Shown here piece by piece: positions 4,261-12,945 of a stretch of 64,000 nucleotides of DNA. Every line of letters starts with the position of its first letter. The first letter of the stretch is position 1. The stretch lies in the sequence record OM632670.1; one strand, written 5' to 3'. This stretch comes from Escherichia phage BEU44. Below the pieces are notes generated by a model that searched no databases, had not been told where the DNA came from, and saw only the letters and a program-made list of their open reading frames with translations. A program made the translations under genes and the position numbers.

Positions 4261-5016
4261 TTAAGCACCGGTAGAGTAATACTCTGCCAGATGGTCGAGA
4301 AGTTTTTGGGCGTCATTGTCCATATAAGTCTCTTGCTTACTGAACATACCCATAGGAGAACGGATACGTTTACCTACTGTTTTCTTAGTAGGTCGAGTCT
4401 GGAATACGTGTTTGTACCCTAACTCTTGTTCATCCTCAGTAATTTCCAACATTCCATTGGAATACTTTTCAAGTTCTTTAAGGTCGATACGTTCTGCTGA
4501 TACAACAGTAGAGAAGTATGCTTCAATACCATTGTTCTTCAGAGAACCTTTTACTGGAACGAAAGTCTTCAGTTCCATTGCACGTTCATCTACTTCGTCT
4601 TTGACGTGAGCAGTGAAAATAACTGGCTTGGCAAATTTAACTACTTTCTCCTGAAGGAGAATTTTGAAGAACTGTGCAAATTCACCCCAAGCCTTCTGAG
4701 TGTTTGCAGCAGTGAGTACATACTGAGTTTCCAGCATATCCATCATGAAAGTCAGGGAATCTACAATGATTCCGTCCACGTCATCACGATGTTCAATGCA
4801 TTGGTCAAAGTATTCCAGAATTTGGTATGGGTCAGTAATACGAACACCATTGAAGTTATTCTTAAATGGCAGACGTTTACCAGCTTCTGTATTCAGATAT
4901 ACCCAACGTTCCTGGTTACGAATGTTACGAAGTGAGGCCGATTTACCAGCAGCAGAAAATCCTACAATCAGGATTAGCTGGTCATTCATTTCGCCATGTT
5001 CAAATTCTTCTGACAT
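4261..5016 (-). CDS. P-loop NTPase, possibly RecA-like (AAA_24/Sak4-like)
   Basis: 251 aa; Walker A GFSAAGKS near N-terminus followed by LNTEAGK. Confidence 0.45.
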   Translation of the reverse strand: MSEEFEHGEMNDQLILIVGFSAAGKSASLRNIRNQERWVYLNTEAGKRLPFKNNFNGVRITDPYQILEYFDQCIEHRDDVDGIIVDSLTFMMDMLETQYVLTAANTQKAWGEFAQFFKILLQEKVVKFAKPVIFTAHVKDEVDERAMELKTFVPVKGSLKNNGIEAYFSTVVSAERIDLKELEKYSNGMLEITEDEQELGYKHVFQTRPTKKTVGKRIRSPMGMFSKQETYMDNDAQKLLDHLAEYYSTGA

Positions 5017-8800: not shown

Positions 8801-9139
8801 TTACTCCACAGCTTTCAGTTTAGCTTTCTTCGCAGCAGTATCTTTAGTTACCAGATTTTGCTGAAAGTCAGGCTGACTCATATGACCCAGGTAGCTGACG
8901 TTCAGGAATACAATATCCCGTACATCTACCACTTGACCAAAACGGTCATTCAGATTCTGAAACAGAGCAGACTGAGCACGTCCCAGGTCACGGAAAGTTA
9001 CCTGTTTCTCTTCAGTAAGCAACATAGTGTTCTGAACAATAACAGCACCTTCCTGACCATCTTTGTTATCAGGAATAACAAAAGTCAGTTGAGCTGCTAC
9101 TAACCAGTGATGCTTTTTCTCTTCAATTTGTTTGGTCAT
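8801..9139 (-). CDS. hypothetical protein (112 aa)
   Basis: ATG at 9137-9139 overlapping stop of polymerase C-fragment (ATGA). Confidence 0.4.
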   Translation of the reverse strand: MTKQIEEKKHHWLVAAQLTFVIPDNKDGQEGAVIVQNTMLLTEEKQVTFRDLGRAQSALFQNLNDRFGQVVDVRDIVFLNVSYLGHMSQPDFQQNLVTKDTAAKKAKLKAVE

Positions 9140-9966
9140 TTAAATGCCTTTTGGATTGCTTCATGGACTTGTTCGGGCGTAGCGTAGTTTGGAATCTCAA
9201 TCTCGTTAGCCCACGTTGGGTAGAATAAGGAGAGTTCCCCACCCAAATGAACATCTGGATGAGCAATATCAGGATGGTCTTGCCATTGTACTGCTTTCAC
9301 CAAATGAGTATTGGTATATATCACAACATCCATATCATCACGGATAAGGAAATACTGAGCATCATGGATATGGGTACTTGGACGAATATCAAGACGATGC
9401 TTACTATTCCGCACCATACGCATGAACTCTGAACCAGCACGGTTATTCAGAAGACACCAACTTTGGCCTAATGCATTACCAGCAGTACGTCCTTCAGCTT
9501 CAGCTTCATAAGGAGTTTTACTGGTTCCACGGATAACTTGTTGAAGTAAGGGGGTTCTGACTCTCAGGCCAAATGCTACGGTTACATAACCATCTTTTGC
9601 AGCTTGGTCTAGTTTAGCCTGAACCCAGTCATCACTTACCTTATAAAGTGTGTGATAACGTTCTTCAACCATTCGAGCTTTCTGTTCAGAGAAACCACAG
9701 TTCTTCATCAAAGTGATGTATGTGCCCTGATAGGTAAGAGCAAAGGTAGGTGCTTTAGAATCCTGACGATATGCTTTGTACTTCTCCTGAATAGAATTAA
9801 CAGACTCTACCGTATCTTCAATGTCAGGCATCATCTCACCGAAGTAAGCATATGCACGAAGACTATGCCCATCGTAACCTGATGAACTCCCAGCTTTGAC
9901 TACGTTGTCAATTTTCTTGCCAGTGAAGTCATGAGTTGATTTTGGCAAGCTGTCGTAAAGCAACAT
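9136..9966 (-). CDS. DNA polymerase family A, C-terminal fragment (fingers motif B and palm motif C)
   Basis: 276 aa; ATG at 9964-9966 with AGGAG upstream; YDGHSLRAYAYFG (pre-O-helix), RQDSKAPTFALTYQG (motif B), THIHDA (motif C-like). Confidence 0.7.
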   Translation of the reverse strand: MLLYDSLPKSTHDFTGKKIDNVVKAGSSSGYDGHSLRAYAYFGEMMPDIEDTVESVNSIQEKYKAYRQDSKAPTFALTYQGTYITLMKNCGFSEQKARMVEERYHTLYKVSDDWVQAKLDQAAKDGYVTVAFGLRVRTPLLQQVIRGTSKTPYEAEAEGRTAGNALGQSWCLLNNRAGSEFMRMVRNSKHRLDIRPSTHIHDAQYFLIRDDMDVVIYTNTHLVKAVQWQDHPDIAHPDVHLGGELSLFYPTWANEIEIPNYATPEQVHEAIQKAFK

Positions 9967-10543
9967 CTTTTCTATTTCTCCTCATAACATCATCCCACTC
10001 ATTTCGAACACCAAGTCGGTCAGCAGTAGTTCTGAGCATCTTATGCAAAGTTTCAGGACGCCTACCTATTTCAAAAGCAATGTCTTTAACTTGCTTACCT
10101 GCCAGCACCTCAAAGAGATACTTCTCTTTATCGTCAGCAGACATGTAACCAGGACGTAGCTTTGTTTTAAGTGCATGTTCAACATTCTGAGTAGCAGAGC
10201 ACCATTCCAGATTATCCTTATGACAATGCAGTTTATTACCGTCTTTATGGTTTACCTGTTCATAGCCATAAGGATTAGGGATGAAGTGTTTAGCTACCAG
10301 AATATGAAGTAGCTCTTGGTGATGTGTACCATCGCCATTAGCTAATCCAACCTTAAGGTATCCATTAGGATTGAGAGTCGGTTTTAGGGGTTGATTGTTT
10401 GCAAGATTTAAGATGAAACCTTCATCGGAAATCTTATACCGTTGTTCATAGAAGGCCACGGGTAAAAGCGTCATAGAACTCCTCACCGGTATAAGTTTTA
10501 CCATCATAAACGATTGTATCATCATCTCGGATATGATGGTCAA
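9929..10543 (-). CDS. HNH homing endonuclease inserted within the DNA polymerase gene
   Basis: Third frame relative to both polymerase fragments; core VNHKDGNK...NLEW...QN..HA; NUMOD4-like segment upstream; longest ORF starts TTG at 10543, first ATG codons at 10525/10522. Confidence 0.7.
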   Translation of the reverse strand: MTIISEMMIQSFMMVKLIPVRSSMTLLPVAFYEQRYKISDEGFILNLANNQPLKPTLNPNGYLKVGLANGDGTHHQELLHILVAKHFIPNPYGYEQVNHKDGNKLHCHKDNLEWCSATQNVEHALKTKLRPGYMSADDKEKYLFEVLAGKQVKDIAFEIGRRPETLHKMLRTTADRLGVRNEWDDVMRRNRKDVALRQLAKINS

Positions 10544-12410
10544 CTCCTTCTATAGTAACTGTATAAACAGTCACACCCATGTACACCTTCAGCTTGTTAG
10601 GGTCTTTGGTTGTTAAAGCAGATATACGGTCTTCGAGAGAAGCAAAGTCTAGCCCACAGAATATCCATCCAGGAGGAGCCTCAAAGCATTTTTTAATCAT
10701 CTTGGCATATCTGGAACCAGAAGGTAGGTTCTGTAGGTTTGGTTCACTACTGGATAGGCGGCCTGATACAGTCCCACCTAAGTTCAGATTACCAAAGAGA
10801 TAATGCCAACCATCTGGTCCTTGTCTGGCATTTTTTAATGCTGGAATAAATGCTGTCAGAATTTTATCTACAGCTTTGTAATCAATCAGAGCATCAAGAA
10901 TTTCCAGAATACTGGTATCTTGGGTATGGTTCTTCAAAGACTTGAGTATGCCACTGCCAGTAGCAGGTAGTTTACTTGCAGTCAAACCAAGTACAGGTAA
11001 CTCCAGAAACTCAAAAAGTAGCTTCTGTAATTGAATACCTGAGTTTGGGTTAAACTGTTCTTTAGCATCAGCTAAAGTCACTCGTTTCTTCTTCAGAATC
11101 TGGTTCTGTTTTTCTACCCATTCTTCATTAAGAAGACGGGTGAAATCTTTGATTACTTTACTGTCAGCAATTGTTTTTAACGCATTGTTATAGTCTTGGG
11201 TTAATGCCTCTTCTACCTCCAATACTGTCTTCATATTGATAGGCATACCAGTTAACTGCATTTGAATAATATCTTCACATGCAGGTTTGAAGATGTTTGT
11301 ATAAACATCTAACTGTTGGTCATTAACCAGAGTATCCCAATGCTTTTCATAGACATACCAGGTACATAATCCATCCACTAAGTTGTATTCCAACAACTCT
11401 GCTAATGGGATTCTGGTAATGTCATTGATTTCTTCTTGAGCATAGTTACCAGCATATTCCTGAGCCTGGTCTTTAAGACTTAGCTTATTACCCGCACAAG
11501 AGTTAGTAGCCAGATAGGTAATTAACTTAGTGCAATCCCAGTTTCTTAGCATGATACTCATGCCATGCAACAACCCTTCCGTATCCAGAAGGTCTGTCAT
11601 AAATAACTGGTAAATGAGTGCATATACGTCAAAGGCAATATTGTGATACATCTGCCTGTTCAGATACTTAATAAAAAAGTCTCTGAGCATAGAACGAACA
11701 AGCATGTTGTGAACTTGTCTACCATAAGGAGCTTCAGTAGCCCCCTCAATTGGTTCATAATCCACAGGGAATGCTATCCCTTCATGCTTGTTCCAGCAGA
11801 ATGTAATAGTGCCTATACCACAGTCATAATGCTTCAGACTGAAGGTTTCTATATCTACTGCTAATGGAACATTCATCTCCAGTAACTTATCTAACCACTT
11901 AGATATAGCTTCTGGAGTTAATGGATAATCAGCATAGTGGATAATCTTAGTTCCTGGCTCAACATAAGAACCAGAGACATAATCAATCAGAGCCTGCATG
12001 GATAAAGCAATCTTAGTCTTTACCTTATCCGGGTCATAAAAGATTTGTCTGTAATTGGGAACGTAAATAACTTTCTGGTTCCCATAAGCACAATCCATTA
12101 CATAGCCAATATTGGCATCAGCTTTACCTTGTTTGGTTAGCTGTTTGTAATATTCAGAATCACCACAGATGATATACTGAGTTTGTGCTGCTTCGAATGC
12201 TGGCACTAATTCTTGGGTAATAAACTCCTGCATCTCTTTAGCAGGAGTTTTCTTTTTCCCTGGGGCTGTATGAAGTTCAAGAATCATTACTGAATCTTTA
12301 TCTACATCCCAGGGTTCCATGTATGCTTTGACAATATCATCCTTACGTAACGTTGTAGTAAGGATAGCAATAGGGTAGATACCCTCATTGTTGAATGTAA
12401 TGTGACGCAT
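10446..12410 (-). CDS. DNA polymerase family A, N-terminal fragment (3'-5' exonuclease plus palm motif A)
   Basis: Exo motifs VDIETF and NIAFDVY; motif A LDFASLEDR; ends TGA at 10446-10448; start ATG 12408-12410 chosen for GAGG SD, longest ORF reaches 12497. Confidence 0.7.
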   Translation of the reverse strand: MRHITFNNEGIYPIAILTTTLRKDDIVKAYMEPWDVDKDSVMILELHTAPGKKKTPAKEMQEFITQELVPAFEAAQTQYIICGDSEYYKQLTKQGKADANIGYVMDCAYGNQKVIYVPNYRQIFYDPDKVKTKIALSMQALIDYVSGSYVEPGTKIIHYADYPLTPEAISKWLDKLLEMNVPLAVDIETFSLKHYDCGIGTITFCWNKHEGIAFPVDYEPIEGATEAPYGRQVHNMLVRSMLRDFFIKYLNRQMYHNIAFDVYALIYQLFMTDLLDTEGLLHGMSIMLRNWDCTKLITYLATNSCAGNKLSLKDQAQEYAGNYAQEEINDITRIPLAELLEYNLVDGLCTWYVYEKHWDTLVNDQQLDVYTNIFKPACEDIIQMQLTGMPINMKTVLEVEEALTQDYNNALKTIADSKVIKDFTRLLNEEWVEKQNQILKKKRVTLADAKEQFNPNSGIQLQKLLFEFLELPVLGLTASKLPATGSGILKSLKNHTQDTSILEILDALIDYKAVDKILTAFIPALKNARQGPDGWHYLFGNLNLGGTVSGRLSSSEPNLQNLPSGSRYAKMIKKCFEAPPGWIFCGLDFASLEDRISALTTKDPNKLKVYMGVTVYTVTIEGVDHHIRDDDTIVYDGKTYTGEEFYDAFTRGLL

Positions 12411-12417
12411 ACAGACC

Positions 12418-12945
12418 TCAAAAGATAAGATGGGTTCCCGCATAGTATTCGATAATCGGCAAGATTTTCTCATACTGACGGAGAGCCATAGCATCATTAT
12501 CCAGAGTAAATGCTGCCTTTCTGGTTCTCTGTAAGGATTTCAGATGACCCTGTTTATCCATAGCAATGAGGCATTCTGGCAATGCATCACGAACGTCTTG
12601 ATAAGTCTTACAGCCCTGAACCAGACGAAAGACCATCTGATTCACCATATGGACTTCTAGCAGAAGTTTACCTGCTTGTTCCAGATACTCCCGCATATCA
12701 TCCAGTAGGTGATTAGCCAGAGCCAGACGATGACCAGAAGGGGGTTGTTGTGATGAACGGGAACTCGAATAGAACTCCCCTAAATACAGAAACCCTGTTG
12801 AGTTGTATACAGCGAATGTTTCCCCATTACGTGTAATGATACTATCCAGCACTTTATCTAGCCGACGTAACTCGGCTAAGAATAATTCCTGAACTAGTTC
12901 ACTACTATTAGTCATTTCACGGATTTGTTTTTCACCCAGTTGCAT
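12418..12945 (-). CDS. hypothetical protein (175 aa)
   Basis: ATG at 12943-12945 just after helicase stop. Confidence 0.4.
   Translation of the reverse strand: MQLGEKQIREMTNSSELVQELFLAELRRLDKVLDSIITRNGETFAVYNSTGFLYLGEFYSSSRSSQQPPSGHRLALANHLLDDMREYLEQAGKLLLEVHMVNQMVFRLVQGCKTYQDVRDALPECLIAMDKQGHLKSLQRTRKAAFTLDNDAMALRQYEKILPIIEYYAGTHLIF

Follow-up and report, generated by a model that had tools for sequence, protein, structure and literature searches.

Group I introns carrying HNH reading frames occur in phage family A DNA polymerase genes, as in SPO1 (I-HmuI) and in T7-like phages; they are ribozymes that restore one mRNA. In phage Aeh1, nrdA is split by mobE, and the products NrdA-a and NrdA-b carry element-derived, oppositely charged tails that are essential for activity (Friedrich et al. 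2007; Crona et al. 2010, PMC3045599). Crona et al. predicted similar tails at other split genes and proposed, with a single example, that tails brought in by an element serve generally as the antidote when a gene is fragmented. The gp43 polymerase gene of Aeromonas phages 25 and 44RR is also split, with a seg-type endonuclease gene between the cistrons in phage 25 (Petrov & Karam; PMC2988022), and the split products co-purify and are active. In the 'fractured genes' of Dassa et al. (2009, PMC2677866), an N-half with an extension is followed by an endonuclease gene and by a C-half preceded by another extension. HNH genes splitting genes of N4-related phages have been mentioned in passing in the literature, and Fouts et al. 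(PMC3670811) made the suggestion, and no more, that those in Vibrio N4-like phages 'may be carried on an intron'. Here we describe a family A DNA polymerase gene of Escherichia phage BEU44 (sequence record OM632670.1) that is split by a cassette encoding an HNH homing endonuclease. The stretch analysed, hereafter the window, is 64,000 nucleotides (nt) long, all positions refer to it, and the genes of the polymerase region lie on its minus strand. Literature searches for a published analysis of this cassette yielded passing remarks only.

We consider it likely that a free-standing HNH cassette splits this essential polymerase gene into two separately translated pieces, which reassemble non-covalently. 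The N-terminal cistron (10446..12410, minus strand; ATG at 12410, TGA at 10448..10446) encodes 654 amino acids comprising the 3'-5' exonuclease motifs (VDIETF and NIAFDVY), the thumb, palm motif A (LDFASLEDR) and a tail of 44 residues. Its start agrees with the annotation of the N4 DNA polymerase, and it matches profile positions 12-180 of 381 of the Pfam family DNA_pol_A (PF00476; E 2.7e-25). The C-terminal cistron (9136..9966, minus strand; ATG at 9966) encodes 276 amino acids and a stop; it consists of an N-terminal extension, here called the head, the fingers with motif B in the O-helix (RQDSKAPTFALTYQG) and palm motif C (HIHDA), and matches DNA_pol_A positions 200-303 of 381 with 35.1 bits against a cut-off of 34.3. 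Between the two lies the HNH gene (9929..10474, minus strand; 181 codons and TGA), with the same coordinates as in the annotation of phage VEc25. Its maximal open reading frame (ORF) spans 9929..10543, and the likely start is the ATG at 10474, as in VEc25. The HNH gene shares 29 nt with the N-fragment and 38 nt with the C-fragment, and the three ORFs occupy three different frames. A first-pass annotation, made from the letters of the window, had described a polymerase gene split between motifs A and B by an HNH ORF, and the three ORFs all lie where it placed them.

The inserted cassette proper (9886..10580, minus strand) is 695 nt long and contains the tail codons with their stop, the HNH gene, and a Shine-Dalgarno sequence, an ATG and the head codons. 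Upstream of it, the polymerase-homologous body of the N-fragment (10581..12410, minus strand) comprises codons 1-610 and ends with the residues KVY; the BLAST match to N4 stops at 10582. The tail (10449..10580, minus strand) adds 44 cassette-derived codons to the N-fragment, MGVTVYTVTIEGVDHHIRDDDTIVYDGKTYTGEEFYDAFTRGLL, and includes …VDHHIRDDDTIVYDGK…; the stop that follows, TGA (10446..10448, minus strand), is also supplied by the cassette. The head (9886..9966, minus strand), 27 cassette-derived codons that open the C-fragment and are not found in intact alleles, reads MLLYDSLPKSTHDFTGKKIDNVVKAGS and includes …STHDFTGK…. One Shine-Dalgarno-like GAGGAG (10479..10484, minus strand) lies within the tail codons, 4 nt upstream of the HNH ATG, and another (9978..9983, minus strand) lies within the HNH codons, 11 nt upstream of the C-fragment ATG. 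The cassette thus brings a stop, GAGGAG and ATG, and each polymerase half has its own translation signals. These are kept in nearly all copies. In all copies examined, no more than ~30 nt separate the N-fragment stop from the HNH start, and the ATG of the head is conserved in most. Copies L008-L012 have an equivalent AGGAG 8-10 nt upstream of the C-fragment ATG, and the Shine-Dalgarno sequence before the HNH start is found in L008-L011. The exceptions are L012, with no Shine-Dalgarno sequence before HNH, and L029, in which no in-frame head ATG was found.

Comparison with intact alleles defines the insertion precisely. The polymerase gene of N4 (EF056009), gp39, is a single uninterrupted gene of 860 codons, in line with the first-pass estimate that N4 has one polymerase gene here. 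In the BLAST alignment a 702-nt block of the window (10581..9880) replaces 7 nt of N4, for a net gain of 695 nt. The hexanucleotide TCATCA (Ser-Ser; 9880..9885, minus strand) corresponds, in diverged form, to N4 ACCGAT (T611-D612), the native codon pair that follows the insertion. Copies L008-L012 and many copies from IMG/VR keep Thr-Asp at this native position, ahead of GYDGH, and we therefore place the true insertion point between codons Y610 and T611. Residues 1-610 of the N-fragment are identical to residues 1-610 of the intact, 859-residue polymerase of phage 3HA13 at 609 of 610 positions, and residues 28-276 of the C-fragment match its residues 611-859 at 245 of 249. Alignment to intact N4-like polymerases, through which the first-pass annotation had expected the boundaries to be found, thus sets them and makes both fragments exactly collinear with one complete orthologue, with no residue lost or duplicated. 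An intact relative aligns to Taq and Klenow, which places the break at Taq …LIRVF|QEGRDIH…, 22 residues past the motif A aspartate. We take this site to be the meeting point of the palm helix and the fingers.

A broken gene would also result from faulty sequencing or assembly, or from decay to a pseudogene in a phage that depends on another polymerase, explanations to which we attach almost no weight. The same layout is present in more than 15 independently sequenced isolates and on many metagenomic contigs, the 695-nt insert is not a frameshift but encodes an intact HNH protein under selection, and both fragments are ~98-100% identical to the intact enzyme and evolve under purifying selection. 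Sequencing error had been named in the first-pass annotation as what might overturn its description; the layout recurs with zero indels in 11 Enquatrovirus records and in phages SP5M, PD205, Pollock and Pylas. Artefact and decay are refuted by this recurrence, by the collinearity of the fragments and by the purifying selection.

The distribution of the cassette is that of a mobile element. BEU44 is an Enquatrovirus (N4-type) coliphage, and window positions 9000-12600 are 100% identical to Escherichia phages BEU5, BEU13, BEU14, BEU42 and BEU51 and 98-99% identical to VEc25, SPSP, AlfredRasser, AL25, Jura, PMBT57, 3HA13, OLB145 and N4. The cassette is lacking in N4, OLB145 and 3HA13 and is found in 11 other Enquatrovirus records at identities of at least 98%. 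The same cassette sits at the same site, with zero indels, in the Gamaleyavirus phages SP5M and PD205, in Pollock (Pollockvirus) and in Pylas (Pylasvirus). Identity to Pollock, which belongs to a different subfamily, steps from ~0.55-0.65 in the flanking polymerase body to ~0.9 across the cassette, with short elevated shoulders, which is the pattern expected of lateral transfer with short co-conversion tracts. Nearly all of the ~69%-identity sequences among the best 120 homologues of the N-fragment are intact (859-860 residues) and two are split; judging by named members such as IME11, this group is Gamaleyavirus-like. The cassette is thus common in Enquatrovirus isolates and a minority allele in the Gamaleyavirus-like group. 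Presence/absence polymorphism and lateral transfer together identify the cassette as mobile.

The HNH protein of 181 residues matches the Pfam families HNH_3 (26.1 bits, cut-off 24.8) and NUMOD4 (23.8 bits, cut-off 23.4). Its best solved relative is 1U3E, an 'HNH homing endonuclease' (E 8.7e-10), with the catalytic motif HKDGN...NL.W...N and N.E aligned; we take 1U3E to be I-HmuI, the nicking endonuclease encoded in the SPO1 polymerase intron. In a collection of 5.8 billion proteins the protein has 228 relatives at E<=1e-5; one of these is indexed in 283 blocks, and in the contexts examined it always lies between polymerase fragments of ~655-661 and ~278-283 residues. An HNH profile retrieved 22 loci from IMG/VR, most of them with a KVY|TD cassette and with HNH identities down to 44%, and the cassette layout recurs on many metagenomic contigs. 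The target of the endonuclease would be a cassette-free allele such as that of N4 around AAGGTGTATACCGATGGTTAC, with a putative cut or nick near AAGGTGTAT|ACCGATGG.

The tail is conserved as a peptide. A search of 1.84 billion representative proteins returned 34 matches, 28 of them clear, and all 28 lie at the extreme C-terminus of N-fragments (634-688 residues) or of pieces truncated by contig ends. No fused polymerase with an internal tail was present among the clear matches in these representatives, and the possibility that the tail is an older polymerase insertion, later split by the endonuclease, was rejected on that ground. The remaining weak matches are long, repetitive, beta-rich proteins with MBG/YDG and Big_13 repeats, which we treat as short-motif resemblance and not homology. 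The tail matched no Pfam family. Its pattern G..[VI][YF].[VL].[IV]….HH[IV]R[DE]D..[IV].[YF]DG..[YF][TS]G..[FY]Y persists across polymerase bodies that fall into different 50%-identity clusters. Over the 34 codons clear of the HNH ORF, read in the frame of the N-fragment, the ratio of non-synonymous to synonymous substitution rates (dN/dS, or omega) is 0.05-0.29 across five lineages, and differences are biased towards third positions (16/24 and 10/13). Compared with SP5M, the window has an omega of 0.095 in the tail, 0.077 in HNH, 0.117 in the body of the C-fragment, and 0.11 in the head, the last value resting on 14 codons downstream of the HNH stop. Selection thus acts at the protein level on the tail, the HNH protein and the head. 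In the same comparison the proportion of non-synonymous differences (pN) is 0.057 in the tail versus 0.10-0.13 in the polymerase body.

In an AlphaFold2 model of the N-fragment alone (mean predicted local distance difference test score, pLDDT, 84.8), the tail forms four short strands and a helix at pLDDT 62-81. Tail and head are terminal extensions without counterpart in the N4 and 3HA13 enzymes, and they are opposite in charge: the tail carries -3 to -6.3 across lineages (-6.3 in the window), and the head +2.5 to +4.7 in most lineages other than that of the window. They would leave the intact fold from adjacent residues (Y610|T611) and so be placed to contact each other. The tail also bears on two further ideas of the first-pass annotation. 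One, that junction sequence was carried in with the element, is borne out, since the tail is lacking in intact alleles and recurs with a related HNH gene at another site (see below). The other held that EGVDHHIR in the tail is a second copy of the YDGHSLRAY segment with which the C-fragment begins; compared with 2000 shuffles, Smith-Waterman scores lend this no support (P 0.34-0.58 for protein, 0.48 for DNA), and other copies have Ile or Val in place of the Asp of VDHH. A marginal local similarity was seen between tail DNA (10446-10581) and the upstream exon (10582-10760), with a score of 12 versus a shuffle mean of 8.4 (P = 0.012), possibly arising from GGTGTAC / GGTGTGAC / TGTTTATAC repeats at the junction.

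The favoured mechanism would run as follows. A 695-nt free-standing HNH cassette has inserted into an allele of the N4 gp39 type, where the palm meets the fingers between codons Y610 and T611. The RNA would remain unspliced and the proteins unligated, the gene being expressed as two cistrons. The cassette would provide the upstream fragment with 44 extra codons and a stop and the downstream fragment with a Shine-Dalgarno sequence, an ATG and ~27 extra codons, and would bring its own endonuclease ORF, overlapping both neighbours in a third frame. The N-fragment (exonuclease, thumb and motif A) and the C-fragment (fingers with motif B, and motif C) would then associate non-covalently into an active polymerase. 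The acidic, predicted beta-rich tail would exit the surface where the head does and most likely stabilises the association of the fragments, as the Aeh1 NrdA tails do. In mixed infections the endonuclease would presumably attack intact alleles such as that of N4, by a cut or a nick, whereupon repair would copy in the whole cassette with short flanking tracts, so that it spreads by homing. Phages with the split allele are viable isolates and all parts are under selection, from which we infer an active enzyme of two polypeptides.

Several points weigh against this explanation. We infer separate translation, non-covalent reassembly, the role of the tail in assembly and the endonuclease target from comparative evidence. 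The window head is barely charged (+0.6), so that charge complementarity is weak in BEU44 itself, and a profile test detected no head homology between the two insertion sites described below. The GenBank records of AlfredRasser and Pylas annotate the polymerase as a join. Our positive control for group I introns, phage PhAPEC7, was detected at 38 bits, below the Rfam gathering score of 50, and a highly reduced or novel ribozyme overlapping the ORF may escape covariance models. Finally, an invariant stem in the tail codons and reduced synonymous divergence may mean that part of the tail conservation is at the nucleotide or RNA level.

If the cassette were instead an intron, its exons would be ligated in the RNA and one full-length polymerase would be made. 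Beside the join annotations, this is consistent with the suggestion of Fouts et al. (PMC3670811) of introns for HNH-split genes in Vibrio N4-like phages, with the occurrence of a group I intron with an HNH ORF in the same gene (PhAPEC7), and with a 5' part of the insert that folds better than shuffled sequence (z = -3.13). The closest solved HNH protein, 1U3E, is presumably encoded by an intron in SPO1. With the group I polymerase introns of SPO1 (I-HmuI), T7-like phages and PhAPEC7, the cassette shares the host gene family, the endonuclease family, insertion in a conserved coding part and homing as the presumed means of spread. It lacks their detectable core and their U/G boundaries, and its flanks are selected codons. 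Rfam searches, with the group I and group II intron models and all others, gave nothing at E<=10 in the window region and nothing at E<=5 in VEc25, Pollock, SP5M and PD205, and no RF00028 signal appeared in these five cassette copies at permissive thresholds, whereas the PhAPEC7 control was detected in the search that covered the latter four (RF00028, E 1.4e-6). The boundaries break the U/G splice rule: C or T, a synonymous wobble of the Tyr codon, precedes the insert, and the insert ends in A or C where the rule calls for G. Once the HNH ORF is set aside, the cassette has only 105 + 43 nt left, well short of a group I core. For comparison with such a core, the figure quoted for phage pVa5 is 279 nt (PMC5746245).

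The sequence flanking the HNH ORF evolves instead as codons in the frames of the fragments (the dN/dS values and third-position bias given above), almost all copies retain the stop, the Shine-Dalgarno sequences and the ATG, and covariation support was not found in an RNAalifold consensus. The BASEL joins were drawn by comparison only, the BASEL paper having set its intron boundaries by comparative genomics. Preservation of a peptide in the frame of the upstream exon is not expected of a spliced-out intron, and we hold this explanation to be improbable. A group I or group II intron was accordingly rejected as unlikely, with Rfam, boundary bases and consensus fold all negative. The first-pass annotation had left the choice between a free-standing endonuclease and an intron open. 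The former is favoured here and the latter disfavoured by Rfam, boundary bases and codon selection, and the group I elements that were to be looked for in the insert did not emerge from the five copies or from the covariation analysis.

A second alternative accepts the split as described and explains conservation of the tail by something other than assembly. The tail region might act as an RNA or DNA element regulating the endonuclease, couple translation to the HNH start, protect against re-cleavage or serve an unrelated polymerase-accessory role; taken together, we regard these as unlikely, though less so than an intron. The tail-coding region contains a possible RNA hairpin of uncertain status (10501..10539, minus strand), with arms CCAUCAUA (10539..10532) and UAUGAUGG (10508..10501). 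The tail codons for His-His-Ile and for Tyr-Asp-Gly pair to form its 8-bp stem, which precedes the HNH start by 25-65 nt. Five of six lineages share this stem unchanged, even at five synonymous positions; in Pylas one of the pairs is broken. The 116 nt at window positions 10475-10590 (minus strand) are those that fold at z = -3.13. RNAalifold found no covariation in the stem; because the stem is invariant in five of the six lineages, no covariation test for or against it is possible. The proportion of synonymous differences (pS) in the tail is 0.42, below the 0.61-0.87 of neighbouring segments, and the Shine-Dalgarno sequence and ATG of HNH sit inside tail codons. The Aeh1 tails are dispensable for the a/b heterodimer itself, and heads are not conserved between the two insertion sites.

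A nucleic acid function alone would nevertheless leave the protein-level signals unexplained, because dN/dS is well under 1 with conservative replacements, and the peptide is thus constrained. The tail is also predicted to be folded, and its first residue and the last residue of the head would flank the break at Y610|T611, adjacent positions in the intact protein. Tails at the second site keep the peptide pattern while their nucleotides, including the HH/YDG stem codons, differ. The position of the stem recalls hairpins reported upstream of other free-standing endonuclease genes.

Tail and head might also be the halves of a split or degenerate intein, with the polymerase restored by protein trans-splicing. 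The layout, gene-N with extension, endonuclease, extension with gene-C, is that of the 'fractured genes' (Dassa et al. 2009, PMC2677866), the extensions are of complementary charge in both, and an acidic N part with a basic C part is found in several split inteins. The residue following the head is Thr or Ser, Asn stands just before the native Thr/Ser in about five of the ~19 distinct head sequences listed, and a degenerate intein was put forward by Crona et al. as a possible source of the Aeh1 tails. However, the tail can open with M, A, Q, T, I, V or S, so that there is no conserved Cys/Ser nucleophile, and the head can close with S, T, K, L, R, Q, I, D or N (Ser in the window), so that there is no conserved Asn. 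No TxxH block is visible in the tail sequences, and no Hint or intein Pfam family was matched by the fragments or by the isolated tail and head, even at E<=10. The 44 + 27 residues are too few for the Hint fold, about half of a minimal one. The endonuclease of the 'fractured genes' is GIY-YIG or Vsr-like, whereas that of BEU44 is HNH. The three ORFs lie in three different frames, which is not an in-frame insertion; the first-pass annotation had set an intein aside on this point, and catalytic residues, size and Pfam agree with it. An intein or split intein was rejected on these four grounds, the Asn of some lineages being deemed insufficient, and we consider it very improbable, more so than an intron. 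In the divergent copies L020, L021, L030, L033, L034 and L035, Asn precedes the native Thr (GN|TD, GN|TP, PN|TP, EN|TD), which may be coincidence or a faint trace of intein-like ancestry.

The tail recurs at a second insertion site. In three of the 22 IMG/VR loci, L028, L031 and L032, a related HNH gene lies ~20 codons further downstream (near N4 residue 630), after …EMPNI and before …VNIINSIQ. The N-fragments of these copies read intact through KVY-KDGYDSHSLRAY, yet end in a tail, and the second-site cassettes (960-1746 in L028, about 1100-1750 in L031 and L032) carry the homologous …RRVFQINQNNTTYVLFEGDTIMFDNEIILIEDYYETHC. A profile built from tails of the first site only matches those of the second end to end, at 16.7 and 14.9 bits and with 0/1000 shuffles. 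The HNH proteins of the second site are ~43-54% identical to those of the first (54% and 48% to that of the window), and in a neighbour-joining tree, computed from p-distances and without bootstrap, they nest inside the diversity of the first-site proteins, with the other HNH genes of these genomes outside. Since a homologous tail accompanies a related HNH gene at a different site, we conclude that the tail is part of the mobile element rather than of its target site.

This suggests, as a tentative reading whose chances we put somewhat below even, that tail and HNH, possibly with the head, constitute a self-contained gene-splitting module, neither intron nor intein, with a portable folded peptide and stop/restart signals. 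If so, the break would be made harmless by holding the halves together, and homing endonucleases would have in this module a third 'phenotypically silent vehicle', one that can be used again elsewhere, as suggested by the second site with its homologous tail. Relative to the single example behind the proposal of Crona et al., the present tail is conserved in four genera and many metagenomic lineages, is more tightly constrained than the polymerase and is found again at another insertion site.

The split itself is not new, as GenBank annotates near-identical phages in this way and the genes-in-pieces class has been described before; what is new is a tail that is conserved in every clear match, predicted to be folded, and found with a related HNH gene at a second insertion site. 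The closest likeness is to nrdA/mobE of Aeh1. In both, the gene for an essential enzyme of nucleotide metabolism or replication is divided into collinear halves by a free-standing endonuclease gene of the HNH family, the halves carry insertion-derived C- and N-terminal tails of opposite charge, and there is no RNA or protein splicing, or apparently none in the case of the BEU44 cassette. The host gene differs, however, being a ribonucleotide reductase there and a family A DNA polymerase here, and the charge polarity is reversed, with the acidic extension on the N-fragment in BEU44. The Aeh1 case was described as specific to one phage, whereas the BEU44 cassette occurs in four genera of two subfamilies (Enquatrovirus, Gamaleyavirus, Pollockvirus and Pylasvirus) and in many metagenomic lineages, with the conserved, predicted folded and recurring tail. 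Tail function is experimental in Aeh1 and a deduction for the BEU44 cassette. With the split gp43 of Aeromonas phages, the locus shares a replicative polymerase made from two cistrons with an endonuclease gene between them. That polymerase is of family B and the endonuclease GIY-YIG, versus family A and HNH in BEU44; the endonuclease as cause of the split is uncertain there, and PMC2988022 describes no conserved element-borne tail at that locus.

GenBank treats the cassette unevenly, with three coding sequences in VEc25, Pollock and SP5M and a two-piece join in AlfredRasser and Pylas. Since the join annotation is probably wrong, the 'joined' polymerase proteins deposited for AlfredRasser and Pylas are probably not real molecules. 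Intact alleles in N4 and 3HA13 and split alleles in BEU5, AlfredRasser and VEc25, whose fragments are 98-99.8% identical to the intact enzyme, form a near-isogenic natural pair in a tractable E. coli system, so that homing, reassembly and tail function are directly testable. Individual records vary further. The polymerase is given as a spliced join in MZ501049 (AlfredRasser), where the HNH start is placed 51 nt upstream of that in VEc25, and in MH899585 (Pylas), while the intact HNH ORF of ON922919 (PD205) carries no annotation. Across the whole window no Rfam family reached its gathering score, and ARAGORN reported no tRNA gene.

Some of the copies with second-site cassettes are more heavily interrupted. 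In L028 the polymerase is cut at least twice more (275-1223), into three or more pieces; another upstream HNH gene (275-805) is 33% identical to the cassette HNH, and a middle polymerase fragment of 87 residues starts within motif A (…MEDYISALTT…). The downstream fragment of L031 apparently begins at a TTG after AGGAGA. Apparent frame breaks occur inside motif B (RQKSKQPTF|ALTYQG), at about 1810-1850 in L028 and about 1790-1830 in L031 and L032, consisting of one extra nucleotide in L031 and L032 and of a 5-nt TGACT insertion with a stop in L028. Breaks at the same site in two unrelated sequences may reflect assembly error, decay or a programmed event.

The same polymerase gene carries a different insertion of 704 nt in PhAPEC7 (L005, KF562340; 1761-2464), and also in PhAPEC5. 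It lies inside the SEPNLQ motif, ~90 nt upstream of motif A, and its HNH protein is only ~20% identical to that of the cassette. With U closing the 5' exon, G as the final base of the insert and stops in the exon frame within seven codons, this insertion has the appearance of a true group I intron that contains an HNH ORF. Pylas (L013) contains a second, unrelated HNH gene (4349-4867) between a gp40-like gene and thymidylate synthase, which is labelled '(intron)' though intergenic and whose product is 22% identical to the HNH proteins of the second-site cassettes.

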